This document shows, one piece after another, positions 381-52,398 of a stretch of 64,000 bases of DNA (positions are counted from its first letter, which is position 1; every line of letters begins with the position of its first letter). This DNA is from an uncultured Chloroflexia bacterium. Its GTDB lineage: Bacteria > Chloroflexota > Dehalococcoidia > Dehalococcoidales > UBA2162. A program made the translations under genes and the position numbers. The DNA lies in NCBI GenBank assembly GCA_963739865.1, contig CAVUCA010000001.1, positions 16,748 to 80,747 on the forward strand, given 5' to 3'. Under the pieces are notes generated by a model. The model saw only the letters and a list, made by a program, of their open reading frames with translations. It was not told the origin of the DNA and ran no database searches.

Positions 381-1295
381 TTATATATTCTTCCCCAGCC
401 CCGCTTCCACCGCTGTTTTGATTTGCGGTAGTGTCCAGGGATTCGCAGGCAGAGTTTTTGCTCCGTACTCGGCCAGGACCTTGATGGCTTCTACATCTAT
501 GGCCACCTGGTCCCTCGAGGCCAATATCACACCTGGATTTGCTAACTGTCCCTTATACGGACCACCTGAGATAAAAGCCTTCCGTCCGTCTGTGATGACT
601 AGATCCGGCTGCCGCCACAGGTTTACCTCGGCCAGTTTTTCTTGTAGTAATTTGCCGTGATAGCTACGCCGTTCCCCCGGATGCACGCAGCCGAAAGCCA
701 ACTTAATGGCGCCTGAAAAGTCGGCCAGACTGTGTGTTTTCAGACAAGGAAGGTATACCAGCTTATCTGCATCGTAGGCTGCCCGGGCGATGGTTACCCA
801 CTTAACATAACGTCCATTTATCTCGATTTTCACCCAATCGTTGCCCTTCTCTTCAAAAGCGATGACGGGCACGCCGAGTTCTTTTCCCAGACGGTATAGT
901 CCGACATGCTCAAAGGTGTTTCTGGTCGGACGCCAGACTGCCCCGGAACTCTCGCCGATGGTAACCTTGGCTCCGGCCTCGCGCAGGATTTCGATCACTG
1001 CCCGTAAAAATGTCTGGTCTGTCGACGCGGGTGGTGGATCGGGGCTGTTATAATTTGGTTTGACCAGGACCCTATCACCCCGGCTGATGATAGTTGATAA
1101 AGGACCTACCTGGGAAAGTGCCTTACCGATATCTTGTTTCAGGTTAGGCCCGGCTTGAAGTCTTGCTACCGGTGATGGTTTCCCTGTTGTCCGGTTGTTT
1201 TCACGCCGGCTTTTAGGGGGGACCGTCGGTGTCCCCTCCGGTACTGTATCAAACAAGTAGTGGTATATTCCCTGGGTCCTGTCGGAAAGTCCCAT
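381..1295 (-). CDS. DUF362 domain-containing protein
   Basis: 304-aa ORF; motifs DRVLVKPNYNSPDPPP...GVPVIAFEE...YLPCLKTHSLADFSGAIKLAFGCVHPGERRSYH typical of DUF362 family; N-terminal ~60 aa low-complexity, start uncertain. Confidence 0.65.
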   Translation of the reverse strand: MGLSDRTQGIYHYLFDTVPEGTPTVPPKSRRENNRTTGKPSPVARLQAGPNLKQDIGKALSQVGPLSTIISRGDRVLVKPNYNSPDPPPASTDQTFLRAVIEILREAGAKVTIGESSGAVWRPTRNTFEHVGLYRLGKELGVPVIAFEEKGNDWVKIEINGRYVKWVTIARAAYDADKLVYLPCLKTHSLADFSGAIKLAFGCVHPGERRSYHGKLLQEKLAEVNLWRQPDLVITDGRKAFISGGPYKGQLANPGVILASRDQVAIDVEAIKVLAEYGAKTLPANPWTLPQIKTAVEAGLGKNI

Positions 1296-2751: not shown

Positions 2752-5114
2752 CTAACTTTTACAGGCCAGGATGGCTCGTTTCACCAGCGTTTTCGCGATC
2801 TGGACCTTGTACTTGCTGTCCACCAGGGCACAAGCTGAGGCTATGGCAGCCTTTCCGGCTTTTTCGGCGGTAGTCTCGTTGATGGCTTTCCCAACCAGGT
2901 ACTCTTCAGCCCCGGTTACCCGGTAGGGCGTGGTGTAAACAGCATTCAAACAGATACGGGCGGACTTTACTTTATTGCCTTCGCTGGTGATGTTTACGGC
3001 ACAGTTCACGATCGGGAAATCTATTGATTTCCGGATGGCAAACTTGATAAAGCTGCCATGAGTTGCACTACCGGTTTTCGGGAATTTCAATATCTGTGAC
3101 GATTTCATCGTCGTCCAATACAGTGCTGCTGTTTCCGGCCACGATGAAAAATTCATCGGCATTGATCCGGCGTTTATTGGTCTTGATCCGGGCATCCAGC
3201 GCCACCAGCGCCGGTGCCATATCCGAGGAATTGACCGCCACACAGCCGCAGTTCAAACACCGCCCGGCTTCTTTCATTGTTGCTTCTGCCGGGAGTCCTC
3301 CGATGTCCTCTACAACCAGGCTCTTCAATCTTTTTTCCATTGCGAGTTCGGGATTTGCTGCCCGTTTGCTCGCGGTCAGGTATTCGCTGTCGAAGGTCAG
3401 CGGTTGTTTTACCGCTATATTGCGGCCGGGGCTGAGCCCTTTTGCGCCCAGGTATCTACTGATGATGTCTGCCGTCCGCCGCCCCGCCGCCATCGCCCCT
3501 GCTACTGTGGACGGCCCGGTAACGAAGTCACCCGCGGCGAATACCTTCGAACCGTCGAGATTGCCATTTTCATCTATTTTTAGTTGCCCCGTCTTATTCA
3601 TAAATATTCGCAGGGATAATAGCCTTGTCCGGCTCTTCGCCTAAAGCTTTCATCACGGCATCGTATTGAGAAGAAAACTCCGAACCGCTTACCGGTACCG
3701 GCCGCGGGCGTCCGCTATCATCTGGCGGCCCGAGTTTCATCCTGGTACAGGTAAGGATGATTTTGCTTCCCTTCTTAACTGCGTTTACCGGTAAGGTCAG
3801 GAACTGGATAGTTATCCCTTCCTCCTCCGCTCGTTCCACCTCTTCGTGTACCGCCGGCATTTCTGCCTTCGTCCGCCGGTATACGATCACCGGGTCTGCC
3901 CCCAACCTCTTCAGGGTCCGGGCAATATCGATGGCGACGTTGCCCCCACCGATCACGGCCACTTTCTTGCCCGGGGTTTTGGCCTTCCCCTGGTTCATTT
4001 CTCTAAGAAAACCGGTCCCGGAGAGAAATAGTTCGTCGCCTTTGATGCCGGACTCCCGTTCCTTCCAGGCGCCGCAGGCCAGGAATACAGCGTCATATTT
4101 TTTCATCAACCCGTTGACCGTTATCTTCTTCCCGATTTCGACCCCGGTCTTGAAAGTTACCCCGGCCGTCTCTAATGCCTTCACTTGTGACCGAACAATA
4201 TCTTTGGGCAAACGGTACGCCGGAATACCATATCTCAGCATGCCGCCTGCTTCGTTTTGCGCTTCGTACACAGTCACCCGGAAACCTTGCTTCATCAGGT
4301 AATAAGCCGCAGCTAATCCCGCCGGGCCCGACCCCACCACCGCTACTTCCTTCCGGTACCGGATATGCGGTGCCTTGATGAATTCGGCAGCGTGTTCCAG
4401 TATATAGTCTCCCACCGTCCGCTCCACCCCGCGGATATTGACTACCTCGTCAAGGTGGCACCGGTTGCAGCTACCCTCGCAGGGGTGCGGGCATACCCGG
4501 CCTGTGATGGCCGGGATGGCGTTATATTGCAACAGATATTCCGCCGCTCCCTTCATATCGCCCTCGCGGAGCTTTCCCAGGTAGGTCGGGATATCGATGT
4601 TTGCCAGACAGTCGCTGATGCACGGGGTGCTTTCCACCCGGGTGCCGCCGAATATCGAATGGTACCGTCCGTCACCGATCGCCGCGTAACATGTCCGCCC
4701 GCCTTTTCTAAGGCAGTGGAACAGGTTATTCGGTACCCAGTAATACCAGCACCGGTTACTCTGGCAGATATTGCCGGCGATGGTGCCCTGCTCCCGTATA
4801 TGAGGGGAGGCAGTTTTGCCGGCAGCTTCGGCCAACAATGGGCAATACTTCTTGATGGTGTCGCTATTAGCGATATCTTCCAGGCGGGTTAAGGCCCCGA
4901 TTTTGATATTCCGGCTTTCGGCTTTAATATAATCGAGCCCGGTTATGTCCTTGATATTGACAACTACCTCGGGTGATTCCGGTAGTATCCCGTCTTTCAT
5001 CTGTCCCAGCAGGTCGGTGCCGCCGGCGATGATCTTTGCCTTTCCACCGGCTTCTTCGAGAACTGAAGCTGCTTCGCTGATTGAAGTTGCGTTTAGATGC
5101 TTAAAATTTTTCAT
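2752..5114 (-). CDS. Mo-hydroxylase FAD-binding subunit (CoxM/XdhB-like) with an inserted GltD-like 2x[4Fe-4S]/FAD/NAD(P)H oxidoreductase domain; reading frame interrupted twice (ORFs 3594-5114, 3068-3601, 2752-3243)
   Basis: N-term MKNFKHLNATSISEAASVLEEAGGKAKIIAGGTDLLGQMK...TIAGNI (FAD-binding PCMH domain) then CPHPCEGSCNRC, VAVVGSGPAGLAAAYYL, KKVAVIGGGNVAIDIARTL, ...VFAAGDFVTG (GltD-like), then SSDMAPALVALDARIKT...EIVTDIEIPE (rest of FAD domain) and ...FAIRKSIDFPIVNCAVNI...AEEYLVGK (CoxM C-terminal domain). Frame switches at ~3598 (T3 run) and ~3075 (T4 run) each break a conserved domain mid-way; out-of-frame N-terminus of ORF 2752-3243 is W/R-rich junk. Confidence 0.6.
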
Positions 5115-5118
5115 TTTC

Positions 5119-7572
5119 TTATGCCTTTCCCAGTGCTTTTAGGACTTTATCCGGTGTCATCGGCATATCGTTCACCCACTTGCCGGTGGCATTGTAGACC
5201 GCCGGTACGATCAGTGTCGGTACTACCGTGGCGACGTCTTCCCCTATCCCCACCAGGCCGTACGGTCCGTAACCCATCCCGCTTTCCACCAGTAAGGTAT
5301 CAATCGGTCCTACATCCAGTATGGTATTTACTTTGTAGTTCAACAGGTTTCCGTTCAACATGATGCCGGTGTTCTTGTCATGGACCACTTCTTCACTTCG
5401 CCCTCGTCCTACCGCCATGTAGGTACCGCCGTACTGCTGGGCTTCGCACCCTTCCCAACTTATCACTTTACCGACGTCATTTACGTTAACCACCCGGGTT
5501 ATTTCCACATCTCCGGTCTCCGGGTCTACTTCCACTTCCATAAAATGAGCCTGGCGGCACAACCGCAACCGGGCTCCCGAATAAGCTCCCCGCTGTATCT
5601 GGAACGAACTGGCAAACATCGGCGGCCGGAAGGGATATCCAGTGATTTTCTCCCCCGCATTCATCGGCTCCCCGTGCGGAGAAAGCAGCGGCCCCATCGC
5701 CCCGGACGGCCCCATGAACTCCGCCATGGTTTTTTGGTTCTTTGGATTAGCCTTTTCATAAATAACACTGTCCTTGATATCCAGGTCTTCCGGCTTTTTA
5801 CCCGGGAAAGCCGGGGGGAAACTGCCGAACTGCGACTGTCCGGTAGGACTGGTCGCTGATTCCAGTATTTTCTGTTTCAATAATCGTGCTGCATTCCGGA
5901 TGGCATAACCGTTGATGGACATGTTGGTTGATGAATCCGGGGTCATTGTGAAAAACCCGGTATCGGCATGCGGCCGGTAGTATACATCCTCAACCTTCAT
6001 TCCAAGTTCGTCGGCGGCTACCTGGCAGTAGGCGGTTTCGGAGTTCACTCCCACGTCCGCCCGGCAGCCCATGATCGTCGCTGTCCCGTCATTTCGTTCG
6101 ATCATGATGGCGATTTCGCCCGACCCCGCTGAGTCTTCCCATTCATGTGTCCAGGTCATGGCAATACCATGCATTTTGCCATTGGCCAATTTTTTCATCC
6201 CCGGTTTATGCCATTTCTTTTGCCAGCCGATCGCCTTTATCCCTTTATCGATGCATTCCTGCAAACTGTCTCTGACTACGAAACCCATCTCGGCTTTACG
6301 CTTATTCAGCCAGGCCATATCATGGCCGTGGGCGCCGTCATTTTTCAGGGCGACTGCCACCGGGTCCATTCCCAGTGCCGCTGCGACCTGGTTAAAAACC
6401 ATGGTCAGGCTGTGGCAGTTGGCATTCTGTTCACAGCGGGTGGGAACGGTCGGCCCTTTATTTACCCGCACCGCCTCCAGTCTCCCGTACACGTTCGGGA
6501 TGCTGGTATTATCAATGAGGTGTTTTACAATGCCGAAAGCCGGCATGTTCTGGTTCACCATCACCCCGCGTTCTTTTACTGCGGTGATCTTGCCGTCTTT
6601 TTTAAAGCCGACCTTGAAATAGTAGACCCCCACATCCATTTCCCCGCCGTAAAAGTCCTCTCTACGGTTAAAGGTCCACTTCACCGGCCGGGCGGTTCGC
6701 TTGGCAATAACGGCGGCACAGTAGTGCCCGCCCATATTCCAGGGCATCTGCGACCAACCGCCGAAGCTGGCCCCCTGGTACAGGGTGTGTATCTGTATTT
6801 TATTCATCGGGATGCCGCCGAACCAGGAGGCGATCGCCCGTTTACAGATATGCGGCCGCTGGTGTTTCAACCAGACTTCAGGGTATTCCCCATTCCACTG
6901 GAAGACGCCGCAAGGACGTTCCGGGCCGATCCAGGTGTTATATCCCTGCTTTAGTTTGAACTCAATGACTTTATCGGCCTCGGCGAATCCTTTTTCCACG
7001 TCGCCGTGCTTTTCAATGGCCATCGCTTCGGCATACAAATTACCATCGGGATAATTCTCCGGGTCAACCAGCGGTGCTCCCGGTTCCAGGGCTAGTTCCG
7101 GGTCGAGGATGAACGGCCGTACTTCCCAGACGACTTCTATCAGCGATAAGGCCTGTTCGGCGATTTCTTCGCTGTCAGCCGCCACGGCCGCACCAACTTC
7201 TTCACCCTGGAAATGGGCAACTCTGGGAATGACCGTTACCGGCGAGGGTTCATGTCCGCCCAGGTCCACGGTTGGCGGAAGCTCTGTATCGTCATATCGC
7301 AGGACCGCCCTGACTCCCGGATAAGCTTCGGCTTTGCTTGTGTTCATACTTTTAATTTCCGCATGGGGATACGGCGAGGTCAGGAACCGCAGGTGCAGCA
7401 TACCGGGTAGTTTTACATCCAGGGTATATTTGGCTTGTCCGGTAGCTTTCTCATAACCATCTATCCGGCGGACCCCCCGCTTCCCCACCTGGCGGTATTC
7501 TTTAAGGGGATATTTGTCGTGCCTGGTATTATCAAATAATTCCTGTATCTTGGCCATCTCATCTTGAGGCAT
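5119..7572 (-). CDS. xanthine dehydrogenase/aldehyde oxidase family molybdopterin-binding large subunit (CoxL-like)
   Basis: 817-aa ORF, ATG 7572 with SD GGAGGAAG; N-terminal a/b hammerhead and Mo-pterin binding regions typical of family; 1-nt gap to upstream 2Fe-2S gene, 4-nt gap to downstream FAD gene. Confidence 0.9.
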   Translation of the reverse strand: MPQDEMAKIQELFDNTRHDKYPLKEYRQVGKRGVRRIDGYEKATGQAKYTLDVKLPGMLHLRFLTSPYPHAEIKSMNTSKAEAYPGVRAVLRYDDTELPPTVDLGGHEPSPVTVIPRVAHFQGEEVGAAVAADSEEIAEQALSLIEVVWEVRPFILDPELALEPGAPLVDPENYPDGNLYAEAMAIEKHGDVEKGFAEADKVIEFKLKQGYNTWIGPERPCGVFQWNGEYPEVWLKHQRPHICKRAIASWFGGIPMNKIQIHTLYQGASFGGWSQMPWNMGGHYCAAVIAKRTARPVKWTFNRREDFYGGEMDVGVYYFKVGFKKDGKITAVKERGVMVNQNMPAFGIVKHLIDNTSIPNVYGRLEAVRVNKGPTVPTRCEQNANCHSLTMVFNQVAAALGMDPVAVALKNDGAHGHDMAWLNKRKAEMGFVVRDSLQECIDKGIKAIGWQKKWHKPGMKKLANGKMHGIAMTWTHEWEDSAGSGEIAIMIERNDGTATIMGCRADVGVNSETAYCQVAADELGMKVEDVYYRPHADTGFFTMTPDSSTNMSINGYAIRNAARLLKQKILESATSPTGQSQFGSFPPAFPGKKPEDLDIKDSVIYEKANPKNQKTMAEFMGPSGAMGPLLSPHGEPMNAGEKITGYPFRPPMFASSFQIQRGAYSGARLRLCRQAHFMEVEVDPETGDVEITRVVNVNDVGKVISWEGCEAQQYGGTYMAVGRGRSEEVVHDKNTGIMLNGNLLNYKVNTILDVGPIDTLLVESGMGYGPYGLVGIGEDVATVVPTLIVPAVYNATGKWVNDMPMTPDKVLKALGKA

Positions 7573-7573
7573 C

Positions 7574-8080
7574 TTACTTCCTCCCCCGCAACAAGCTGGC
7601 GGCTTCTATCACCGCTTTGATATGTTGCGGATAGCTGCCGCAACGGCAGATATTTCCGGCTAAGGCTTGTTTGATCTCTTCCTCGGTCGGGTCCGGATTC
7701 CTGTCCAACAGGGCTTTTGCGGTGACAATGAATCCGGGAGTGCAGTATCCGCACTGCATGCAGCTATATTTTACATAGGTTTCGATCAGCGGATGTTTTG
7801 CCCGGGTGATGCCTTCGATCGTCTCGATTTTCTTACCGTCGCATTCGATCGCCAGTATCATACAGGAGAGCACCGGCCGCCCCTCCATTATCACCGTGCA
7901 AGCCCCGCAGGCTCCTTCATCACAAAAGGCTTTCGTTCCTGTCAGCCCGAGGACATCGTGGAGGACATATTGCAGCGTCCAGGTCGCTTCCACGCCCGCT
8001 TCATATAAGTCCCCGTTCACTTCCAGCTTGATCTTTGCCTCGTTGAGTAACTCTTTCTTCTTAACTGTCGTCATATTCAA
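7574..8080 (-). CDS. (2Fe-2S)-binding small subunit of Mo-hydroxylase (CoxS-like)
   Basis: 168 aa; plant-type ferredoxin Cys cluster CDEGACGACTVIMEGRPVLSC plus second cluster motif CRCGSY; first gene of minus-strand operon. Confidence 0.9.
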   Translation of the reverse strand: MNMTTVKKKELLNEAKIKLEVNGDLYEAGVEATWTLQYVLHDVLGLTGTKAFCDEGACGACTVIMEGRPVLSCMILAIECDGKKIETIEGITRAKHPLIETYVKYSCMQCGYCTPGFIVTAKALLDRNPDPTEEEIKQALAGNICRCGSYPQHIKAVIEAASLLRGRK

Positions 8081-11395: not shown

Positions 11396-11425
11396 GGAGC
11401 GGTCGCTGGACCGCTCCTTTTTTAT
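11396..11425 (+). terminator. rho-independent terminator after AraC-family gene (GGAGCGGTC-GCTG-GACCGCTCC + TTTTTTAT)
   Basis: 9-bp perfect stem 11396-11417 followed by T-tract 11418-11424. Confidence 0.6.
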
Positions 11426-13303
11426 TTCGTCACGATCTTCGCTTTACAGGCGGGGATGATAGCCTGGAGTCCGCAGGTATTGCACGGCCCGTTCCGGCAG
11501 TCATTGGTCTCTTCCGCCCTCAAAGCCCGCTGGTACTCCTCTTTCAGGAAAGCGGGACTTACACCAATATCAATATGCTCCCAGGGTAAAGGTTCATCTA
11601 GTGAACGTTCCCGGCTGGCATAAGAGTCGGGATCGATACCGCATTCGGTAAACGCTTTTTGCCAGATAGCATAGTTGAAATGCTCGCCCCAGGAATCGAA
11701 CAAAGCTCCTTGTTTCCAGGCTTGATATATCACTTTTCCTATACGCCGGTCGCCGCGTGACATCACGGCCTCTAATTGACTGACTTTCGGGTCGGACCAG
11801 GATAATCTGATCGCTTTACGGCGGACGATCTGGTGGAGGAGTTGTTGTTTAGCGGTTAATGCCTCCTCACTTTCCCGTTTTACCCATTGAAACGGAGTAT
11901 GGGGTTTGGGTATGAATGTGGAAAGGTTAACCCGGATCTGGATAGGCCGGCGGCTGACTTTCTGCCCTTCCGTAAATACTTTATTTACGAGATTGCCGAT
12001 TTCCTCAACATCCTCGTTGGTTTCCCCCGGCAGGCCGAGCATGAAATAAAGCTTGAGCCCGCCCCAGCCTTTGGAGAAAGCCGCCGTGGCTGTGGTCAAT
12101 AAATCGTTTTCTGTCACTCGCTTATTGATAGTGCGGCGCATGCGCTCGCTGCCGGCTTCGGGGGCAAAGGTTAACCCGGTCTTCCGGTGTGACGGTAAGC
12201 ATTCCATCAGGTCAACGGAGAAGCTGCCGATATACAGGCTTGGCAAAGATATCGCCAAATCGGGATATTGCTGCGTCAAACTGGTTACCAGTTTCCTGAT
12301 ATCCGAATAATCACTGCTGCTTAAAGAAACGAGGGAAATCTCATCGTAACCGCAGTTCGAAATCACTTCGCCTACTGCACTTAGTACTTCTTCGACCGGT
12401 CTTTCCCGGACCGGGCGGTAAATCGTTCCTGCCTGGCAGAAACGGCAGCCGTTGCTGCACCCTCTTTGTATCTCCACGGCCCCCCGGTCATGGACCACTT
12501 CAATGAAGGGCATGACCGGTTTGGTAACCGGCGGGGGAAGCTGGGGAATTATTCTCCGCTGGATGCGTTCTTTTGCCTCGGGAAATAAAGGTTTTATACT
12601 TTGAAAAAGTCCGTCTGCTTTATATTCGACTTGATAGAGGCTGGGCACATAGATACCGGCGATTTCAGCAAAATGCTGCAGGATATCCTGTCTTGTTTCT
12701 GTCGGTTTACCACTGTCCTTGCGGATCTACCCTGTCTCGTAGTTGCTCGACGATTTCCAGGATGACTTCTTCGCCGTCACCGATGACGAAGAAATCGATA
12801 AAATCCGCCATCGGCTCTGGATTCAATGCACCGCTCCCGCCGGCGATGATCAGGGGATGAGATGCATCCCGGTCCGACGCCATTAATGGGATTCCCGCCA
12901 GGTCCAGCATATTCAGGATATTGGTGTAGGTAAGTTCATGTCCCAGGGAAAAACCGAGGACGTCGAATTTCCGCAGCGGCGTCCTGGACTCCAAGCTGAA
13001 CAATGGTATCTTAGCTTCCCGCATTGCGGCGGCCATGTCAACCCAGGGCGCGAATACCCTTTCGGCAAGGACATCAGGCTGCCGGTTGCAGATATCATAA
13101 AGGATCGGTACTGCCATATTGGACATCCCGATCTCATAGACATCAGGATAAGCCAGTGCGATCCTGATGGGAGTTGCTTCCCAGTCCTTCTTAATGATAT
13201 TCCATTCCCCGCCGGTATACCGTGCGGGTTTATTCACCTGGTGTAAAATACGGTCGAGGTTTTTCAGTTCATTCACGGTTCGGTTATCCATCCAGTTCTG
13301 CAA
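11422..13303 (-). CDS. radical SAM protein with N-terminal B12-binding-like domain (TIGR03960-like family); frame interrupted once (~12705-12715) between ORFs 12707-13303 and 11422-12648
   Basis: N-part: GGEWNIIKKDW...IALAYPDVYEIGMSNMAVPILYD...FDVLGFSLGHELTYTNILNMLDLAGIPL...IIAGGSGALNPEP; C-part: EVVHDRGAVEIQRGCSNGCRFCQAGTIYRP (CxxxCxxC). Second frame read upstream of its first ATG gives GKPTETRQDILQHFAEIAGIYVPSLYQ, i.e. continuous protein; the two frames are offset by one nt within CCGCAAGGACAGTGG. Confidence 0.7.
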
Positions 13304-19613: not shown

Positions 19614-19967
19614 TTACGGGAAATAGACCATATCCAGGAATTCTTTTTCCTCGATGATCTTGTTGAGTTCTTCCCGTTCGCCAGGGTCTGATATCGGTTC
19701 GACTTCCGAATACGTTGCCCCGTCTCTCTCTGCGGTGTGCCAGCCTTTGATATAACCCGGAACCGAGGCATATACCCAATTACCGGCGCCGCAGCAGGAA
19801 TTTTCCAGTACGGCTTTCCCGGTCAGATAGAGTATTTCCCGGCCTTTATAGGGCATCCTGACTTCTTTGAACATCACATAATAACCGGCAATCCCGATCA
19901 GGATTTCCTTCCCCGGTTCCAGGTGCTTAAATTCTACGGTTGTGTTTTGTGCTGTGCCGGACGGCAT
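19614..19967 (-). CDS. hypothetical protein (117 aa, CC-G-A-G-N-W motif), translationally coupled downstream of NifU-like gene
   Basis: ATG 19967 with SD AAGGTGA; 11-nt gap after upstream gene stop; no family recognised. Confidence 0.55.
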   Translation of the reverse strand: MPSGTAQNTTVEFKHLEPGKEILIGIAGYYVMFKEVRMPYKGREILYLTGKAVLENSCCGAGNWVYASVPGYIKGWHTAERDGATYSEVEPISDPGEREELNKIIEEKEFLDMVYFP

Positions 19968-19978
19968 CGGATATCACC

Positions 19979-20218
19979 TTATTCTTCTTCGGAGTCGCTC
20001 ACGGCGACTACTTCCTTGACCTCGGGCAATTCCTGTTTGAGGATTCTTTCGATGCCCATTTTTAAGGTCATGGTAGAAAACGCTCAGTGGCCGCAGGCAC
20101 CGGTCAATTTTACTCTGACCGTACCGCCTTTTACATCGACCAGTTCTACATCGCCGCCGTCGGCTTGCAGCCCGGGCCGGATCTTGTCCAGGACTCCCTG
20201 GATAGTCTCTTTGGTCAT
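19979..20218 (-). CDS. NifU-like (Nfu-type Fe-S scaffold) domain protein with in-frame TGA at the second Cys of the CxxC motif: candidate selenoprotein (79 codons incl. TGA at 20084-20086)
   Basis: Strong SD AGGAGG 7 nt before ATG 20218; translation [44 protein letters not shown][TGA][34 protein letters not shown] aligns to Nfu C-domain …GxCxxCxxSxxTLKxGIE… with TGA replacing second Cys; ORF continues in frame 34 codons after TGA to TAA; not in ORF track because of the TGA. Confidence 0.6.
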
Positions 20219-36994: not shown

Positions 36995-39139
36995 CTACGC
37001 CCGGGATGACATTTCAGGAATAGGCCTGATGTCATTCCGGACTAATATTGAAAAAGGCACTTTTATATCCGGATGATAGGATGGACCATTTTGGCATCCG
37101 GCCAGGAGCCGTAGTATTTCATCATATCTTCCGGCGGCTTTTTTTGCAGCCATGCTTTTTCGAATTCGGCGTAAGGCTGCGCTCGCGCTGAAACGGTCTT
37201 TACGTTCCGCCTGCCGCAGGGCTGCCGTCGGCTCTTCATCGGCCGTCCAGGTGGCGGCATCGTAAGCTACGTGGTATACATTTCGCGCTGCCCAATCCGA
37301 GATAATCTCATCCCGGATATCGTTAACGACCGCCTGCGGTTCCCGTTCCAGGACATCGCCGTAACCATAGCCGCCGGCCTGCGACCCGCCGCCCACCAGC
37401 GCCCCCTCATATAGCAATCCCTGGTTGCCTTCGGCGGGGAATTCTTGGATCACGTCCCGCTTGAGGACTTCCTCCGGGGTGGTGGGGATGTTCTTTTCGC
37501 CTTTGGCCATTAGTTCGAGGAGGTTGCTGCGGTTGATGCCAGCGCCCGGGGTGGGATATCCGGGATATCCGCCGAAAAGGCCCTGCCCCACGAGCATTCT
37601 GGCATGGTCTCCCCTACGTTCGACGTTGCCTTTGACATAAGGAACGCCGTAGACGACGCTGGCCATGTACCCGGAGGCGCCGCCGCGGAATTTGCCATGG
37701 CCGCAGCTATCTTTGCGGTGTTTCTGCCAGAGGTGGAAGACCGGTTCGTTGACTTCGGTCTCTTCGCCGTCGGTACCCGGGGCATGTACGGCGGAGCGGA
37801 AGACGGCGCTGTTCATGCCGTCCGAGTCCACTCGGCCGCCCTGCCCACCCGTGTTACGCGTCCATCCGCCGCCCCCGCTGACGAAGGGGACCCCCCACTG
37901 GTTGATGCCCGAGCCGATGCCGCCGCCACCCCCACCACCGCCCCCGGAAATGCCGTTGATGGGCGCAGCAATCTCATATTTATCATCACTGGAGAACATC
38001 ATAGAAGCGAATATCTTGGGCAGCAGTTCGTTATTCAGTTCGCCCACGGGCGGGGCCAGCGAGATGGCCGCATCCCAGTTCGGGCTGATGATAGTGCCGT
38101 CCGGGATCTTGAAATCCACGGGAACCAAGGTCCCGGAACATACCGGCAGGTCCCAGAAGCCGTGGGAATACATGTGCAGGGCAGCGTAGCAGACAATGAC
38201 CCAGGGCATGCAGTTCCAGGCGGTATCGGTTTCGGGAGAAGTGCCGGTATAATCGAACAAGATATGGTCGCCTTTTTTATAAGCGGTACAATATATGCGC
38301 CACAATCCCGGGTACGGCCCTACCCCGCCGTTGAAACAGATATTACGGTAGATGCCGTCATGCCAGCGGCTGATCCTTAGTTTAGCGCCTTCCTCAGACA
38401 CGATAAGGATGCGGCGCAGCAAACCGAGGATGAAGCCGCCGCCCTTTTCATCGGCTAACTGCTGGATGCGCGTACGCAGCCGGTCGGCGGCGGTAACTCT
38501 CCCCTTCAGGTCCAGTAATTGCTGCCGGGGGGCGCGGGAAATGAAATTCACCATCATCTCCACGAGGTCATCCTTGAGGATATAGTTTTCGGCGATCTTG
38601 ATGGGAGTCAAGCTCATCCCTTCGTCATAGCGGCTCTTTGCACCGGGAATCATACCGCCGGGCATGGTACCGCCGGTTTCAGCGATATGCGTACCGGCGG
38701 AGGCCCAGGCGATGAGTTCCCCTTTATGGAAGATGGGCATCAACGCCAGTTGGTCGCAGTTATGTATGCCGCCGTAGGTAGCTTCGCTAGCATAAAAGAT
38801 GTCGCCTTCGTGGACGCCGACGCCGGGATTATTTTTGAAATTACGCATGATCCATTTGATGGGGTTCTGGGCTGTGACGCTGTGGATAAAAGTGCCCAGG
38901 CAAGCACCCACGAGATCGCCCTGGGCGGTATGCAGCCCGACGATGAGGTCGCCGCCGATGATCCAGTCCGAATTACCCACTTTCATGAATACTTCCTTGC
39001 ATTCGGCGAGGATCATGGTCAACCGCTGGCTGCAGATCTCATAATCGCCAGGTTGCAGCAGCTTAAGGCCTTCTGCTTCCTCATTGGTGATGGGATCGGG
39101 TTTCAGAAATGCCATGACTTCATTTTTTGACGGCCGCAT
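36995..39139 (-). CDS. hydantoinase B/oxoprolinase family protein (HyuB-like; acetone/acetophenone carboxylase catalytic-subunit type) with Gly-rich insertion
   Basis: 714 aa; family-typical motifs (…DPITNEEAEGLKLL…NSDWIIGGDL…HGFWDLPVCSGT…); unusual insertion ISGGGGGGGGGIGSGINQWGVPFVSGGGGWTRNTGGQGG. Confidence 0.85.
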   Translation of the reverse strand: MRPSKNEVMAFLKPDPITNEEAEGLKLLQPGDYEICSQRLTMILAECKEVFMKVGNSDWIIGGDLIVGLHTAQGDLVGACLGTFIHSVTAQNPIKWIMRNFKNNPGVGVHEGDIFYASEATYGGIHNCDQLALMPIFHKGELIAWASAGTHIAETGGTMPGGMIPGAKSRYDEGMSLTPIKIAENYILKDDLVEMMVNFISRAPRQQLLDLKGRVTAADRLRTRIQQLADEKGGGFILGLLRRILIVSEEGAKLRISRWHDGIYRNICFNGGVGPYPGLWRIYCTAYKKGDHILFDYTGTSPETDTAWNCMPWVIVCYAALHMYSHGFWDLPVCSGTLVPVDFKIPDGTIISPNWDAAISLAPPVGELNNELLPKIFASMMFSSDDKYEIAAPINGISGGGGGGGGGIGSGINQWGVPFVSGGGGWTRNTGGQGGRVDSDGMNSAVFRSAVHAPGTDGEETEVNEPVFHLWQKHRKDSCGHGKFRGGASGYMASVVYGVPYVKGNVERRGDHARMLVGQGLFGGYPGYPTPGAGINRSNLLELMAKGEKNIPTTPEEVLKRDVIQEFPAEGNQGLLYEGALVGGGSQAGGYGYGDVLEREPQAVVNDIRDEIISDWAARNVYHVAYDAATWTADEEPTAALRQAERKDRFSASAALRRIRKSMAAKKAAGRYDEILRLLAGCQNGPSYHPDIKVPFSILVRNDIRPIPEMSSRA

Positions 39140-39201
39140 ATTTTCCCTGCCTTTCGGTTATTTCCAGGAGACTTAATTTCCTGGAAATATGCCCATTTTT
39201 C

Positions 39202-41376
39202 CTATTCGATGATGCCGCTGCGGTATTCATTCATCCGGAATGTCCGGCCCGGGGGGATGACGGTATTGGTATCCGGGGATTCGATGATGACGGGCCCTTC
39301 CAGGACATTGCCCGGTTCGAGCAGGTCCTGTTCGTAAAGGGGGGTGGGTTGATACCGCCCTGTTTCCTCCCAGAAAGCTTCCCGCTGCCCTTTATAAGCG
39401 GCAGCCGGGGGTTTAGCACTTTTAAGTGTCAACCTGGGAATTTCGAATTTCGGTGTCACGTAGCAGGACTTGAGGATAAATGAAGAAATATCGACACCGC
39501 CCTGGGGATATACTGCCAGGGGGCTGTAGGCTTCGCTGTATTCTTTTTCGAACTGCCGGTAGACTGCCTGAGCATCGTCCAGGTTTTTCATGAATAGGCG
39601 GGGCGAGGAGACCCGTTTCATATTCAATTGCCCGCCGTAACGCATTTCCAGTTCCAGGGTAAAAATGGCCTTTTCGGCGGAAATGCCCTGGCCGACCAGG
39701 TCGCGCACGGCCCGTTTTTGCAATTCCAGGACGACTTCGTTAAAGCTTTCGAAATCAGCGGCATATTCCAGCGAACCCGGTTTAATCAAGGGCAGGTGCC
39801 GGGACATTTCGTAAAACTGCACCATGTCCATCACGGCCGAGCCCAGGGCACAGAAAACCGGGGAATTAGGGAAGGTGACGACGCGGGGGACACCGGTGCC
39901 GAAGGAATAGCCGCAGCAGTGGGTAGGCCCACCCCCGCCGAAAGCGAAGACGACAAACTCTTTGGGATCGTAACCCCGAAGGACGGTCTCCTTAAAAATC
40001 TCGCCGCCCATATTGCCGTCGACTACTTTTTTGATCAGCCGGGCAGCCTGTTCGACATCGACACCGAGCGGCCGGGCGATTTTCTCTTTGATGGCATTGA
40101 TGGCTTTCTCACGGTCAAGTTTGATCTTACCACCGTGGAAATAGTCCGGGTTAAGGTAACCCAGAACCACATCGGCATCGGTGACGGTCGGTTCCGTTCC
40201 GCCCAGGTCGTAACAAGCCGGCCCGGGCATGGAACCGGCACTTTGCGGCCCAACCTCCAGTTGATTCCCCAGGATAGGATTGATGCGGGCGATGGAACCG
40301 CCGCCCGCCCCGATGGAGCGGGACTCGAGCATGGTGATCTCGACGCCCCAGCGGTCGATCACCGGCCGGAACTGGTAGAAGTTAGGGCTGCCGTTCACGA
40401 CCAGGCCCAGGTCGAAACTGGTGCCGCCGACGTCGGTGGCAACGATATTCCGATATCCTTGCATTTTACCGAGATAGCCGGCCCCGATAATACCGGCGAC
40501 CGGCCCGCCGTTATATGTATTCAAAGCCGTGGTGCGGAATACTTCCGCCATGCCGCCGCTGTTATGTACCATCATCATGGCCCGTTTATATCCCGAACTC
40601 CGCAGCTCATCGCTCATGCCCTTCAATTCATCGGACATGGAACGCTGAAGATAGGCGCTGAGCATGGTGGCGACCATACGGGGGTATTCCCGCCAGCGCG
40701 GCAGTACTTCACTGGAGAGAACGACCAGCATACTGCCCAGGTAACATTCGGGATACTGCCGCCGCACCAGGTCGCGGATCTGCTGTTCATGCAGCGGATT
40801 AGCATAGCTGTTGATGAGGCAAATCACAAAACCCTGGGCGCCCTGGTTTACCAGGTAACGGAGTTTTGCCAGGGTATCTTCTTCATCCAGCGGCCGGATA
40901 ACCTTGCCGTTGGCGGCGACCCTTTCTTTCACGCCCACGATCATATGGCGGGGGATGACGGGCACCGGTTTGTTCATACGGGGCAGGTTACGCATCTCGC
41001 TGATGGGAATGCCGTCGCCCCACGAACCACCCCGGCCGGCTGACAGGGTATCCTCGAAACCCTCCGTGGTAAACAGGCCGAGGCGCGGCCCTTTCCGTTC
41101 GATGAGCCGGTTGATGGCCATGGTAGTGGAATAGAGGATCATTTCCGTGGAATCCAGGAGTTCCTCCAGGGGAATATCAAGCAAAGCCACGGTTTCCCGC
41201 AGGGCCTGCATGAAACCTTTCGACAGGTCGTAGCCGGTGGTAGGGGCTTTTCCCGAAACGATTTTGTCGTTATAAATAATAACGCAATCGGTAAAAGTGC
41301 CCCCGATATCCACGTTGATGCTGGCGCGCTGTTTTACCATGTTCGTACTATCTGTTTGTTGCCTGGACTGGGTCAT
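39202..41376 (-). CDS. hydantoinase A/oxoprolinase family protein (HyuA-like; N-terminal ASKHA ATPase fold)
   Basis: 724 aa; INVDIGGTFTDCVII…ATDVGGTSFDLGLVVNG… (two ATPase nucleotide-binding motifs); SD GAGGAGGG. Confidence 0.85.
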   Translation of the reverse strand: MTQSRQQTDSTNMVKQRASINVDIGGTFTDCVIIYNDKIVSGKAPTTGYDLSKGFMQALRETVALLDIPLEELLDSTEMILYSTTMAINRLIERKGPRLGLFTTEGFEDTLSAGRGGSWGDGIPISEMRNLPRMNKPVPVIPRHMIVGVKERVAANGKVIRPLDEEDTLAKLRYLVNQGAQGFVICLINSYANPLHEQQIRDLVRRQYPECYLGSMLVVLSSEVLPRWREYPRMVATMLSAYLQRSMSDELKGMSDELRSSGYKRAMMMVHNSGGMAEVFRTTALNTYNGGPVAGIIGAGYLGKMQGYRNIVATDVGGTSFDLGLVVNGSPNFYQFRPVIDRWGVEITMLESRSIGAGGGSIARINPILGNQLEVGPQSAGSMPGPACYDLGGTEPTVTDADVVLGYLNPDYFHGGKIKLDREKAINAIKEKIARPLGVDVEQAARLIKKVVDGNMGGEIFKETVLRGYDPKEFVVFAFGGGGPTHCCGYSFGTGVPRVVTFPNSPVFCALGSAVMDMVQFYEMSRHLPLIKPGSLEYAADFESFNEVVLELQKRAVRDLVGQGISAEKAIFTLELEMRYGGQLNMKRVSSPRLFMKNLDDAQAVYRQFEKEYSEAYSPLAVYPQGGVDISSFILKSCYVTPKFEIPRLTLKSAKPPAAAYKGQREAFWEETGRYQPTPLYEQDLLEPGNVLEGPVIIESPDTNTVIPPGRTFRMNEYRSGIIE

Positions 41377-41426
41377 GTTCCCTCCTCATCCCAAACGGTC
41401 AAATTAGATTCCGTGGGGCAGGTGGT

Positions 41427-41759
41427 TTATTCGGCCGCATATTTCGCTTTCAGCTTGTCTACATCCAGTTCAATGTCATAGGTAACAGGGTGCCCGGGCG
41501 GCAAAACTTCATTTTCCACCATGACGGCGCAAACCGGGCAATAGAATTCGATGATGCGGCAGAGTTCCGGGTCGGGGGCAAAGCTGTTGTCGGGTAGGAC
41601 GGGGTTATAGACGGTGCGGGGGTCCCGGTCGTAGACCAGGCAGCCTTTCTTATAATTCTCCCGGGCAGAAATTAACTCACGGCCGCAGCGGTTGCAGCAC
41701 CATTTTTCGGTGTCCAGGTCGATGTCCAGGTATTCCGTAATCCGTATTTTTCGTCCCAT
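41427..41759 (-). CDS. acetone-carboxylase gamma-subunit-like small zinc-ribbon protein
   Basis: 110 aa with CCNRCGRE…CPVCAV (CxxC…CxxC), size and position between two HyuA-like genes as in apcB/acxC. Confidence 0.65.
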   Translation of the reverse strand: MGRKIRITEYLDIDLDTEKWCCNRCGRELISARENYKKGCLVYDRDPRTVYNPVLPDNSFAPDPELCRIIEFYCPVCAVMVENEVLPPGHPVTYDIELDVDKLKAKYAAE

Positions 41760-41762
41760 GGC

Positions 41763-43808
41763 TTACTCCAATTCCATCAATCCGTTGAGATATTTATCCA
41801 CGGTATATCTACTACCGGGCGGCACAATGATGGTGGTATGAGGGCTTTCGATAAAAGCCGGCCCCTTAATCACATTACCGCACGCCAGCTTGCCTTCGTC
41901 ATAGAGTGGGGTGGATTGGGGTTCCCCGTGGAAATATGCCGTCCGCCGGCCTTTTAGTGCTGGTCCCGGGTTTTCCCCCGCCTCAGCGTACACGGTGAAT
42001 TCGGGATCCGCCAGGTGGCAGGATGCCTTAAGGCGGAATTCCCGTACCGTGATTTTATGGTTTTTTTCACATGCAGTTGCCCGGTCCCGGTAAAGGTCCA
42101 ACAGGCCTGTAACATCAGCGTTATCCCGGAGCTGCAGCAGTGGCCATCTAACCGGGGTTAAGGCTGGTACACCTTCCGAAATCATCATTAATTCCAGGAC
42201 AAGCGAGACCCTGGTTTTCTCGAAGCCTTCCCCTTCCATGTCGAAATAAGCATCCGCCTGTATCTGCCGGACAATTTTGTTAAACTCCTCGCGCACCGCT
42301 TCCCCGGTTCCGGTCAATTCCAGGTTGGCGACAGTACTGTAATTATGTAGAATGTCGGTACACGAAGAGCCGAAGGCACAGAACTGGGCACCGAAGCGGA
42401 AAAAGCGGATTTTACCGATCCCGGCGGCCCGGGCGATACCCGGACACAACAGGCCGCCGCTACCGCCGAAAGCAAACATTTCCAGTTTTTCAGGATCGAT
42501 AGCTTTCTCGGTGGTGAATTTAGTTACCAGGCCGGCACAATTCCGGGTGATAACATCAAGTGCCATTTCAGCGGCTTTAGCCTCGGTAGTTTTAAGAGGG
42601 TCAGCCAGGCGACGTTTTACGGCCGCCCGAGCTTTCGCCGTATCCAGTTTGCGGCGGCCGCCCAGGAAATAGTCGGGGTCGATATAACCAAGGGTAACCC
42701 AGGCGTCAGTAGTACAGGCATTAGTGCCGCCCAGGCCGAAACAAGCCGGCCCGGGGATGCCGCCCATACTTTCCGGCCCGGCGGTCAATTTTCCGTCGCG
42801 GCCTACTTTCATCACTGAGGAACCGCCGCCTCCGATAGAGACGGTCTCGATGGCTGATTCTCTCACGGGAACACCGCCCAGGTCTTTTTCGCGGGTGTAA
42901 GCCGGTTCTCCACGGGCGATGATACCCACATCCGTACTGGTGCCCCCGATATCGACGGTAACCACGTTTTCAAGGCCGTATTTCCGGGCCAGGAAAGCGG
43001 CGCCGAAAAGCCCGGCGGCCGGTCCGGAATCACAGGTGTCGATAGCTTTGGTCTTAGCGACACGGCACACGCCGCCGGTGGCATGGACAATCAGCAGGGG
43101 CCATTTGAAGCGGTTGTTCCTGAGATCATCATCGGCTTTGTAAAGATAATGTGCCATATCCTGGTGGATATAGGCGTCGATGAGGGCGGCGTTGGTGCGA
43201 TAAAAGTCATCGATCTCGGTGCTGATCTCGGTGGAGAGTAATAAAGGCACAGTGCCCAGGTAATGGGCCGGGTAGTTGGCGAGGACAATTTCCCGGACCA
43301 ATTTTTCATGAGCCGGATTCAGCGGCGAGCGGGCGAGACTCACCACGATGCGGCGGGCGCCCCTTTCCAACAAATCCTTCACGGCCGCCAAAACTTCAGT
43401 GCTTGAAGGCGGTTTGACCGGGACGCCGTGTTCGTCCATCTCTTCAGCGATGCCGACCACCATGTCTTTGGGAACCAGGAAATCAACGGCCGGATTAGTC
43501 GCTTCCGGCGGGGCATAAGCATTGATGCCAATTCCCCCGGTTACCAACAGGCCTAACTTGGGGCCGGACTTGTTGATGAGGGCATTGGTACCGATGGTTG
43601 TGGAAAGGCGTACCGTGTCCGTGTGCGGTAGTAAACGGCTGGCAGATTCATAGCCTAATTTTTTTGCCGCTTCCTGGATACATTCCATGAAACACAGGGT
43701 CAGGTCGTGAGGTGTAGTCGGTACTTTTACCAGTTCGATTTTTCCGTTGCCGTGTACAAAACCGTCGGTAAAAGTCCCCCCGGTGTCGATATCGATGCTG
43801 TATCCCAT
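41763..43808 (-). CDS. hydantoinase A/oxoprolinase family protein (second HyuA-like paralogue)
   Basis: 681 aa; MGYSIDIDTGGTFTDGFV…VTVDIGGTSTDVGIIARG…; SD GAGGGGGG. Confidence 0.85.
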   Translation of the reverse strand: MGYSIDIDTGGTFTDGFVHGNGKIELVKVPTTPHDLTLCFMECIQEAAKKLGYESASRLLPHTDTVRLSTTIGTNALINKSGPKLGLLVTGGIGINAYAPPEATNPAVDFLVPKDMVVGIAEEMDEHGVPVKPPSSTEVLAAVKDLLERGARRIVVSLARSPLNPAHEKLVREIVLANYPAHYLGTVPLLLSTEISTEIDDFYRTNAALIDAYIHQDMAHYLYKADDDLRNNRFKWPLLIVHATGGVCRVAKTKAIDTCDSGPAAGLFGAAFLARKYGLENVVTVDIGGTSTDVGIIARGEPAYTREKDLGGVPVRESAIETVSIGGGGSSVMKVGRDGKLTAGPESMGGIPGPACFGLGGTNACTTDAWVTLGYIDPDYFLGGRRKLDTAKARAAVKRRLADPLKTTEAKAAEMALDVITRNCAGLVTKFTTEKAIDPEKLEMFAFGGSGGLLCPGIARAAGIGKIRFFRFGAQFCAFGSSCTDILHNYSTVANLELTGTGEAVREEFNKIVRQIQADAYFDMEGEGFEKTRVSLVLELMMISEGVPALTPVRWPLLQLRDNADVTGLLDLYRDRATACEKNHKITVREFRLKASCHLADPEFTVYAEAGENPGPALKGRRTAYFHGEPQSTPLYDEGKLACGNVIKGPAFIESPHTTIIVPPGSRYTVDKYLNGLMELE

Positions 43809-47333: not shown

Positions 47334-47523
47334 TATCGCCCGGCTGGCGGTGCTGTTATAAACTTTTAAACCACTTATAATTAAGGTATAAATAGTGAAA
47401 GATAGCAATCCCGGGCCTGCTGGAGAGGCTGCCGGACTTTTTAAATGTCCGGGGGCTTTAGGCCGGGGGGATGCTGTACGGTCGAAGTCCTTTTACCGGG
47501 TAAATTATGCAAAGGGGGGGCAA

Positions 47524-49362: not shown

Positions 49363-49366
49363 GACG

Positions 49367-49636
49367 TTGAAGATCGAAGTATTATTCTTCGGGCGCGCCC
49401 GTACCATTACGGGCGCCGCCCGGAAAACGGTAAACATCAGTGAAGGGGTGAAGTTAGCGGACCTGTTCCGGCTGCTGGACTGCCGCTATGACAACAAATT
49501 CAGCGGTGAATTTAAGGATTTTAAAGGGCTGATGGTTATGATAAACGGCCGTCATTACAACTCGGTCGGCGGCCCGGATGCCCCGCTGAACGATAAAGAT
49601 ACGGTGGCTATCATGCCGGCGGTGGTGGGGGGGTAA
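49367..49636 (+). CDS. MoaD/ThiS family sulfur-carrier protein (C-terminal Gly-Gly)
   Basis: 89 aa, MKIEVLFFGRARTITGA…DTVAIMPAVVGG*; 4 nt after AOR stop. Confidence 0.8.
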   Translation: MKIEVLFFGRARTITGAARKTVNISEGVKLADLFRLLDCRYDNKFSGEFKDFKGLMVMINGRHYNSVGGPDAPLNDKDTVAIMPAVVGG

Positions 49637-49931
49637 ATTTCCGGCCGTGCTTGACCACCACCGTCGGCTGGTCGCGCCGGTAGACGGAAAATACCCCCGG
49701 TGAGGTCTCGATCACCCGGGTGTGGTAGCCGTGTTTGTGGTATTTAAGGGCTTCTTTATTGGCGGCATTTTTGTTGTCACAGGTGTGTTTGAGCAGGAAA
49801 AGGCGGCCGTTGAAAAATTTCTGCGCCGGGGTACCGGTAGCCCCGGTAATCGCAGGGATGCCGGTACGGCCGATGTCCCGGGTTTGTTGCTCGAAAGCCC
49901 TCGCTTTGATTTCTTTTTCGTCATCGAACAT
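49611..49931 (-). CDS. hypothetical protein (106 aa; C-terminal PPPPPA)
   Basis: ATG 49931 (MFDDEKEIKARAFEQ…) with SD GAGGAGGG 8 nt upstream; ORF-track start 49955; 3' end overlaps MoaD gene convergently by 26 nt. Confidence 0.45.
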   Translation of the reverse strand: MFDDEKEIKARAFEQQTRDIGRTGIPAITGATGTPAQKFFNGRLFLLKHTCDNKNAANKEALKYHKHGYHTRVIETSPGVFSVYRRDQPTVVVKHGRKFTPPPPPA

Positions 49932-50102
49932 CGAGGCGACCCTCCTCTTCACCACATAGGTAATAGTTGACGGAATACTATCTTATAACATCATCAAGGC
50001 ATTTATTAACAGTATTACCGATGAACCGGATAAATTCATTATAATAAAAATACGGGGATGTTTCTTAACAACGTAAGGGAAAAACACCATGATCAAGTCC
50101 GA

Positions 50103-50131
50103 TTGACAAATTGACGGATAGTATATAGAAT
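50103..50131 (+). promoter_or_regulatory. putative sigma-70 promoter of AOR paralogue 2 (TTGACA-17 nt-TAGAAT)
   Basis: TTGACA 50103-50108, 17-nt spacer, TAGAAT 50126-50131; leaves ~160-nt structured 5' leader before ATG 50298. Confidence 0.45.
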
Positions 50132-50297
50132 GCCGTACAATGATGGTCACATAGGACTGGACTTGCTGTCACCTAACGGGCAAGTGACATCCCCTTTCCG
50201 GGCACTTCATAAGTAGGTAATCAGGATACTAATAAGGAAAGAAGTGGGCTGGAGAAACACTTATTACCTTAAGTTTTATGCAGGAGGGAGTAATACA

Positions 50298-52268: not shown

Positions 52269-52398
52269 TATCACATCGCCGGGAGAGGTTGTACGGGCAA
52301 CAACTTTTCCCGGCTGAAATACTGGTAAGTGTGTATGCAGCCTGGAAAAGGGACGTTATACAGGTGTTACCAGGCAATGCTGTGCAAGGGAGGGTACG

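Follow-up and report, generated by a model that had tools for sequence, protein, structure and literature searches.

The 64,000-nucleotide stretch of contig CAVUCA010000001.1 analysed here (hereafter the window) comes from an uncultured member of the Dehalococcoidales, and carries on its minus strand a small gene for a NifU-like (Nfu) protein in which an in-frame TGA stands at the codon of the second cysteine of the CxxC motif that ligates the iron-sulphur (Fe-S) cluster. We put at roughly 80% the probability that this codon, residue 45, is read as selenocysteine (Sec) in a manner dependent on SelB as well as on a Sec insertion sequence (SECIS), which would give an Nfu carrier with the motif C-G-H-U. 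The first-pass annotation of the window had suggested that the gene might encode a selenoprotein whose Sec replaces the second ligand cysteine of Nfu, and this proposal is now supported by conservation of the TGA, by selection on the codons downstream of it and by a SECIS found in the wider family. That the inserted residue is Sec, and what would follow from this for Fe-S chemistry, we infer from sequence comparison. Genes with TGA at this codon are referred to below as Sec-Nfu or TGA forms, and those with a cysteine codon as Cys-Nfu or Cys forms.

The coding sequence (20218-19979, minus strand) begins with an ATG at 20218-20216, comprises 79 codons including the one in-frame TGA, and ends with a TAA at 19981-19979; it encodes a single Nfu domain. 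The ATG opens a run of 44 sense codons, the last five of which are GGT GCC TGC GGC CAC (the TGC, at 20095-20093, encodes C42, the first Cys of the CGHU motif), leading to the TGA at 20086-20084. Beyond the TGA the same frame stays open for 34 sense codons up to the TAA, and the list of open reading frames (ORFs) shows a 44-aa stump and a 30-aa downstream ORF (20071-19979) in one common frame. The first-pass annotation was right that read-through gives a complete 79-residue domain and stopping a 44-residue stump, since the 34 further codons are present and the profile PF01106 is covered in full. It was also right about a strong Shine-Dalgarno sequence on this minus-strand gene: AGGAGG lies at 20229-20224, 5 nt 5' of the ATG, and is kept in two relatives introduced below (loci L062 and L001). 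Long full-length ORFs in the window (n = 53; GC content 53%) stop at TAA in 39 cases, at TAG in seven and at TGA in seven, so that stop usage is strongly biased towards TAA across the whole window. As seven of these ordinary ORFs end with TGA, the genome is not recoded and uses the standard code, in agreement with the earlier statement that other TGAs in the window behave as ordinary stops. No convincing case besides nfu was found among 49 mechanically identified in-frame TGA candidates in the window.

The identity of the domain is clear. With Cys placed at the TGA, the 79-aa product matches PF01106 at 103.3 bits (E = 7e-30; gathering cut-off 27 bits), with residues 6-71 aligned to positions 1-67 of the 67-position profile. 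The only other Pfam match is a weak one to PF01883, and the NCBIfam matches are TIGR02000, TIGR03341 and NF008392. A phmmer search of the PDB found the product to be closest to the Nfu scaffolds 2z51 (Arabidopsis CnfU), 2jnv (rice), 1xhj and 2m5o (human NFU1), and also matched 1veh. Alignment with 2z51 and 2jnv places the TGA at the second Cys of GACGSCPSS; in 21 close homologues the same column is the second Cys of G-A-C-G-x-C, where Cys is invariant, and among 73 metagenomic relatives with a recognisable motif it is occupied by Cys in 71, TGA in one and TAC in one. Both the sequence and these alignments bear out the earlier placing of the TGA precisely at the second CxxC Cys. C42 is present and the downstream (S)xxTLKxGIE stretch is intact, and the CxxC pair is complete only if the TGA is read as Sec or Cys. 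Identity with the HesB-like selenoprotein (TIGR01911) was considered and rejected, as no HesB/IscA-type profile was matched in the Pfam or NCBIfam scans.

The TGA is shared by independent populations and by other species. At least 10 independent samples have yielded contigs, at least 24 in all, with the exact 44-aa stump, and the gene order on them is constant: a gene for a universal stress protein (Usp), then Nfu, an ORF of 117 aa and a VTT-domain gene. Samples with this population include wetland sediments (e.g. JGI 3300003541, 3300003432 and 3300004078). All eight of the contigs that were fetched (JGI and SRA/Logan; independent short-read assemblies), which are 98.6-99.6% identical to the window, carry the TGA and an intact downstream frame, and none has TGC or TGT, so the codon is not refuted by data from the same population. 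The TGA is also kept in another Dehalococcoidales species with a syntenic locus (L062, a MAG contig of assembly CAZSHH01; 83-87% nucleotide identity), in the best metagenomic relative (L092, 95% protein identity), in stump variants from other samples (L180-L186), and in a more distant Chloroflexota orthologue (L021). In L062, L092/L180-L185, L186 and L021, 28-34 open codons follow the TGA, and the window, L062 and L021 share a syntenic tRNA-Glu downstream. Within the same sub-clade, L001 has TGT at this codon, one base from TGA; more distant relatives have TGC or TGT. Identity with a Cys-form orthologue reaches 92-94%. A single-base switch between Sec and Cys, as in L001, is typical of selenoprotein families.

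The codons after the TGA behave as coding sequence. Between the window and L021 the proportions of synonymous and non-synonymous differences (pS and pN) over the 28 codons after the TGA are 0.87 and 0.12, a pN/pS of approximately 0.14, and in the part upstream of the TGA they are 0.68 and 0.21. By this measure the codons after the TGA are as constrained as those upstream, and thus are under purifying selection and translated. Replacements after the TGA within the sub-clade are all conservative (R/K, Q/K, L/V, E/Q and S/A), and the 34 codons show no frameshift and no second stop in any of the haplotypes (at least six) or contigs (at least 24). Divergent TGA forms retain the family motif [AP][FM]ST (AFST / PMST / PGAT) in the four codons that separate the TGA from the following ATG, which argues against re-initiation there. 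On checking the orthologues, then, both the TGA and an open, selected downstream frame proved to be kept in other species.

Sec-Nfu is not confined to the Dehalococcoidales. A degenerate DNA pattern, G-x-C-x-x-TGA-x5-T-L-K-x-G-I-E, was searched against a 596-Gb collection of species-representative genomes; by our own estimate the pattern holds approximately 40 bits of information and about one chance match would be expected in 596 Gb. It matched once in the window (0 expected) and in 90 stretches of the collection, giving 91 further TGA-form genes from about 90 reference genomes. All 92 TGA forms, the window's included, translate into a full Nfu domain, the frame staying open for 28-34 codons past the TGA. 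The carriers are mostly Bacillota of the Desulfotomaculia, Peptococcaceae, Pelotomaculum or Syntrophomonadaceae type, with cultured strains among them (genera Desulforamulus, Desulfofundulus, Pelotomaculum, Desulfoscipio and Sporotomaculum), for example Desulforamulus putei DSM 12395, Desulfofundulus australicus DSM 11792 and Pelotomaculum propionicicum, whose predicted Sec-Nfu would contain GACGG-U-PGA; five are metagenome-assembled genomes (MAGs) of Chloroflexota/Dehalococcoidales, and single matches are labelled Chitinophagales, Deltaproteobacteria and Armatimonadota. At 17 Bacillota (Desulfotomaculia) loci a Cys paralogue lies on the same strand 300-700 nt upstream of the Sec gene (L002, L006, L018, L024, L028, L034, L041, L047, L048, L055, L059, L076, L078-L081 and L084), and L015 and L052 each have two tandem Sec-Nfu copies. 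The tandem Cys/Sec pairs suggest selenium-dependent switching between isoforms, an idea that is directly testable because several carriers have been cultured.

Most members of the family share a short hairpin, denoted hairpin A, which lies at nt 34-49 counted from the U of the UGA and consists of a 6-bp stem, UUGAGC/GCUCAA, closed by a loop of GGUC, GGGU, GGUU, GGAU or AGGU. It is encoded by the codons for I-E-R/Q-x-L-K. Codons +6 and +11 to +15 of the 85 unique Sec forms have a third-position entropy of 0, compared with 1.5-1.9 bits at neighbouring codons of the same genes and 1.0-1.8 bits at the hairpin sites of Cys forms. This pattern identifies hairpin A as an RNA-level constraint specific to TGA genes, i.e. 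a SECIS, since the hairpin is perfect in 86/92 TGA forms but in only 4/73 Cys forms, which encode nearly the same peptide, and in none of the 17 Cys paralogues in tandem at the same loci, the strictest control because it is made within one genome.

Codon +6, a Thr codon, is always ACC in the 85 unique Sec forms (e.g. L002 and L058; its counterpart in the window is at 20068-20066), compared with a third-position entropy of 1.76 bits in Cys forms. The ACC is complementary to the GGU of the hairpin A loop, and a small second hairpin could arise by pairing of ACCCU at this site with the AGGGU immediately 5' of hairpin A; the invariant codon may be an additional SECIS determinant. Two TGA forms outside the window's clade have no perfect hairpin A: in L046 (a Clostridia MAG, at about 5010), where it is missing from the standard register, a version shifted by 3 nt with a GG-initiated loop (GAGCG-GGCGAUU-CGCUC) can be seen by eye, and in L043 (a Chitinophagales MAG, at about 161) all that inspection by eye shows is a stem with a bulge and a UAU loop.

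The window, L062, L092 and L021 form two or three of the six hairpin A pairs, and their TGA is followed by a different candidate SECIS. This structure, denoted structure B, is a 54-nt three-stem hairpin on the minus strand (20070-20017) that starts 13 nt after the TGA. It has a bottom stem of 7 bp (20070-20064 with 20023-20017), a middle stem GGGCA/UGCCC (20057-20053 with 20028-20024), an inner stem UCCU/AGGA (20043-20040 with 20034-20031) and an apical loop CAAAC (20039-20035); the GGGCA...UGCCC and UCCU...AGGA stems and the apical loop lacking a G had been noticed in the first reading of the sequence. In the window it is both the minimum free energy and the centroid fold (-15.9 kcal/mol, z = -2.81, 3/200 shuffles), as it is in L062 (z = -4.05) and L021 (z = -1.96), and it is missing from the nearest Cys forms (L001, z = -0.23; L093, z = -0.07; L103, z = -1.47). 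The flanks dilute the 54-nt signal when a wider stretch of 81 nt around and after the TGA is folded (z = -0.51). Of the 16 pairs, 15-16 form in the TGA forms and 8-15 in the 73 Cys forms. L021 shows two double compensatory changes in the structure at a synonymous divergence that is saturated; 97.5% of cells are paired, compared with 23-53% in slid controls, and the observed covariation was reached by 20/500 shuffles. Apical loops in the clade are CAAAC, GAAAA and GAAGA. These features make a SelB-binding role as a SECIS plausible for structure B. Most TGA forms have the Sec-specific hairpin A, and the window's clade has another hairpin, stabler than shuffled sequence. At relaxed E-values, Rfam gave only chance-level matches to unrelated families in 19900-20130. 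A further hairpin past the stop codon (UGCC-GUCC-GGCA, approximately 120 nt from the UGA), picked out by eye, was rejected as too distant and too weak.

In the mechanism that we propose, the UGA at 20086-20084 would be recoded by Sec-tRNA(Sec) brought by SelB, which would be tethered to a hairpin in the mRNA downstream and inside the coding sequence, and the 79-residue protein would be made in place of the 44-residue stump. The tether would be hairpin A in most family members (Desulfotomaculia and some Chloroflexota), and in the window's Dehalococcoidales sub-clade hairpin A would have been replaced by the longer three-stem hairpin at 20070-20017. By analogy with Cys-Nfu, a [4Fe-4S] (or [2Fe-2S]) cluster may be held between two Nfu subunits, ligated by two thiolates and two selenolates; selenolate is softer, more acidic and more nucleophilic, and could alter cluster lability, transfer rate or redox robustness. 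The full combination, in which Sec-Nfu is an unrecognised family whose selenolate ligates a transferable cluster and the sub-clade also uses a new 54-nt SECIS whose A-rich loop, approximately 44 nt past the UGA, lacks G, is offered tentatively and is less likely than not. If a new three-stem SECIS type does exist, it would imply a mode of SelB recognition unlike that of the GGU-loop hairpin of the same family elsewhere.

Several points weigh against Sec insertion in the window's gene. Hairpin A is absent from it (three of six pairs), and the apical loop of structure B, CAAAC, lacks the G/GU of hairpin A and lies approximately 44 nt after the UGA. A G/GU apical loop is typical of characterised bacterial SECIS elements, and the bSECISearch model is said to allow a loop distance of 16-37 nt after the UGA, beyond which structure B lies. 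An inner-stem pair is broken in the sub-clade haplotype L180, the structure is backed by what appear to be about two independent lineages, and the shared peptide alone gives many of its pairs in Cys forms (8-15/16). Rfam, run over the whole window at gathering thresholds, returned the tRNA-Glu only and no SECIS. The 64-kb window contains no selA, selB, selD or tRNA-Sec, and a tRNA-Sec search of the window and 17 related loci found none. If Sec had separate origins in the two lineages, the comparison of pN/pS for the window and L021 may in part cover Cys-form ancestry.

One alternative is a nonsense pseudogene, in which an ancestral change from TGY to TGA in the sub-clade left only the 44-residue stump to be made, with a downstream frame that has not yet decayed. 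The clade is without the hairpin A of 86/92 other TGA forms, its nearest Cys form is only one base away, the window has other broken genes, and the sub-clade has too few downstream substitutions to make a pN/pS test strong. We nonetheless consider this unlikely, because the TGA is common to several species-level lineages (83-89% nucleotide identity) as well as L021, the 34 codons are free of frameshifts and second stops in all the haplotypes and contigs mentioned above, downstream replacements are conservative with a pN/pS of approximately 0.14 against L021, TGA forms have in common a stable hairpin that is missing from Cys forms, and 91 other genes, with an evident SECIS, have TGA at this codon. 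A sequencing or assembly error at 20084 might also be thought of in view of the several frameshift-type gene disruptions in the window, but it is effectively refuted by the occurrence of TGA in eight same-population contigs that were assembled independently (of at least 24 with the stump) and in other species.

Read-through could alternatively insert a residue other than Sec, either Cys via a tRNA-Cys resembling tRNA-Sec or Trp or Cys by near-cognate decoding of a leaky UGA. This would suit the missing canonical SECIS loop in this clade, and a tRNA in Desulfoscipio geothermicus, described below, indicates that unusual Sec/Cys decoding parts exist in carriers of the family. The GCA anticodon of that tRNA, however, reads UGY rather than UGA, and its host belongs to another phylum; other TGAs in the window serve as ordinary stops; the downstream structure specific to TGA forms is what recoding of the SelB type predicts; and a correspondence of Cys and Sec at a metal-ligand CxxC is the pattern classically seen in selenoproteins. 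For these reasons we hold a non-Sec residue to be very unlikely. Even less credit can be given to a split gene, in which translation would stop at the TGA and re-initiate at the ATG five codons on (20071), the 44-aa and 30-aa peptides then reassembling without the second ligand. The in-frame 30-aa ORF at 20071-19979 is annotated by some gene callers and has a weak PF01106 match, and purifying selection downstream is compatible with this too, but no Shine-Dalgarno sequence precedes the ATG, which is simply the codon of the conserved STMTLK Met that Cys forms also have. The four codons from the TGA to the ATG keep the family motif, and the product would be without an essential cluster ligand.

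If Sec is indeed inserted, Sec-Nfu is probably an undescribed selenoprotein family, with the classical Cys/Sec and SECIS pattern and an atypical SECIS in the window's lineage. The genes of the Desulfotomaculia are recorded in GenBank/UniProt as stumps of 44-46 aa named 'NifU-like domain-containing protein' (SHF07090.1, SHK97902.1, CCO09300.1, TEB11189.1 and SHF38771.1), and IMG labels the Dehalococcoidales stumps 'NfuA'; recorded in this way, Sec-Nfu is missed by annotation pipelines and by selenoproteome catalogues. The protein collection searched held no full-length form with X at the Sec position, and NCBIfam release 20 has no dedicated Sec-Nfu model. Records of 73-74 aa named 'NifU family protein' by NCBI on Sec-Nfu contigs were considered as possible selenoprotein annotations and turned out to be the Cys paralogues. 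In one Logan gene call (P0147) a Sec-Nfu is translated with Trp at the TGA (CGGW), a code table with TGA as Trp having been applied. Two unrelated 385-aa membrane proteins (P0144 and P0145) fall in the 90% cluster of the window's 44-aa stump, apparently as a clustering artefact. The May 2026 catalogue, which covers known as well as predicted selenoprotein families of prokaryotes, has no NifU, Nfu or PF01106 entry, the nearest being the unrelated HesB-like family (PMC13188914, Table 1), which agrees with the remark in the first-pass annotation that NifU-like proteins are not a standard selenoprotein family. An Nfu selenoprotein is likewise not mentioned in a 2022 review, in deep-Sep and its supplements or in BSepDB, and a search for NifU/Nfu together with selenoprotein in the literature found nothing relevant, with incomplete coverage that makes an earlier description possible.

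Sec-Nfu belongs along its full length to the same fold family as the Cys proteins Nfu, NfuA, NFU1 and CnfU (PF01106), with the common motif G-A-C-G-x-[C/U]-x-x-S-T-x-T-L-K-x-G-I-E. It differs from them in that its second ligand is encoded by TGA and in the mRNA recoding hairpin inside the coding sequence. Cys-Nfu proteins bind an Fe-S cluster transiently and transfer it through the CxxC pair, and the same role is presumed for Sec-Nfu by analogy. The SECIS hairpins of Escherichia coli fdhF and Moorella thermoacetica fdhA have an apical loop of the GGUC type and are bound by SelB. Hairpin A resembles such canonical bacterial elements in its short stem, its GGU-type loop and its position downstream of the UGA within the coding sequence. 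It differs from them in the distance of 37 nt from the UGA codon to the loop, which is right at the outer end of the spacing usually quoted. Structure B departs further, having three stems, a length of 54 nt and the loop CAAAC/GAAAA/GAAGA, and no Rfam model matches it.

Among known selenoproteins the HesB-like (IscA-type) protein TIGR01911 (listed in PMC13188914, Table 1) is likewise a small factor of Fe-S biogenesis or carriage from anaerobes with Sec in place of a ligand Cys, but it has an unrelated A-type carrier fold and the motif UxGP, compared with the CxxU of Sec-Nfu. Other CxxU selenoproteins listed there (HdrA, GrdA, SelW-like, AhpD-like, DUF1858 and others) also have Sec as the C-terminal residue of a CxxC-derived motif, and, as with Sec-Nfu, their Cys homologues are common and their genes are frequently mis-annotated as truncated. 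They are of different families and act mostly in thiol redox chemistry, whereas the CxxC of Nfu is a ligand pair for a metal cluster. If confirmed, Nfu would be the second Fe-S cluster biogenesis factor to exist as a selenoprotein, after HesB-like, and the first to have its Sec in the well-studied bridging CxxC pair of a transferable [4Fe-4S] cluster. It would offer a natural system for studying the effect of selenolate on cluster lability, transfer kinetics and oxidative robustness. The occurrence of an invariant GGU-loop hairpin and of another structure on the same protein background would also be a natural experiment on SECIS evolution.

Upstream of nfu lies its syntenic neighbour, the Usp gene (PF00582; 20779-20306, minus strand), with a terminator-like hairpin at 20319-20299. 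A promoter-like site precedes nfu on the minus strand at 20287-20259 (-35 TTGACC, a 17-nt spacer and an extended -10 TG-TAATAT), identified solely as a match in a consensus scan. The block TTGACC...CTGTTATGTTAATATCG is kept in L001 and L062, where the surrounding intergenic sequence has diverged. Downstream, the 117-aa ORF (19967-19614, minus strand) starts 11 nt after the nfu stop codon, contains the motif SCCGAG, has no Pfam or NCBIfam family match, and is probably co-transcribed with nfu, as judged from this arrangement. It follows Nfu in Chloroflexota loci of the TGA type (the window's clade, L030 and L042) and also in those of the Cys type (L093, L098, L103 and L124), which makes it a partner of Nfu that is not specific to Sec.

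A Pfam scan of 40 window ORFs found neither Sec machinery nor known selenoenzymes, and two 461-aa ORFs that were considered as SelA proved to be a MatE transporter and a histidine kinase. At the level of the class, BSepDB places Dehalococcoidia MAGs among the bacteria richest in selenoproteins, with 46-49 genes each (PMC13326102). In Desulfoscipio geothermicus DSM 3669 a 93-nt tRNA lies 2.9 kb from Sec-Nfu (L056, positions 442-534, minus strand; NZ_FOYM01000004.1). ARAGORN calls it a tRNA-Cys (GCA), and the Rfam tRNA-Sec model RF01852 matches it end to end at 40.4 bits (gathering threshold 47; E = 1.4e-6); by these two predictions it is a tRNA shaped like tRNA-Sec with a Cys anticodon. It is reminiscent of the Sec-like tRNA-Cys species reportedly described by Mukai and colleagues.

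Three genes elsewhere in the window are split. An aldehyde:ferredoxin oxidoreductase gene (52399-54251, plus strand) is divided into ORFs covering AFOR_C positions 5-146 and 144-385, a prismane/hybrid-cluster protein gene (58244-59810, minus strand) into parts matching profile positions 1-271 and 346-513, and a YgiQ-type radical-SAM protein gene (11422-13303, minus strand) into separate Radical_SAM_N2 and Radical_SAM ORFs. The apparent frameshifts may mark genuine pseudogenes or be due to assembly errors of the indel type. The window is also rich in catabolic genes of the kind found in anaerobes (36995-43808, minus strand; 47395-54251, plus strand; 3594-8080, minus strand), which include hydantoinase/acetone-carboxylase-like subunits (among them an Acetone_carb_G protein), three aldehyde:ferredoxin oxidoreductase genes, and a molybdoenzyme of the xanthine dehydrogenase family with its FAD and 2Fe-2S subunits.

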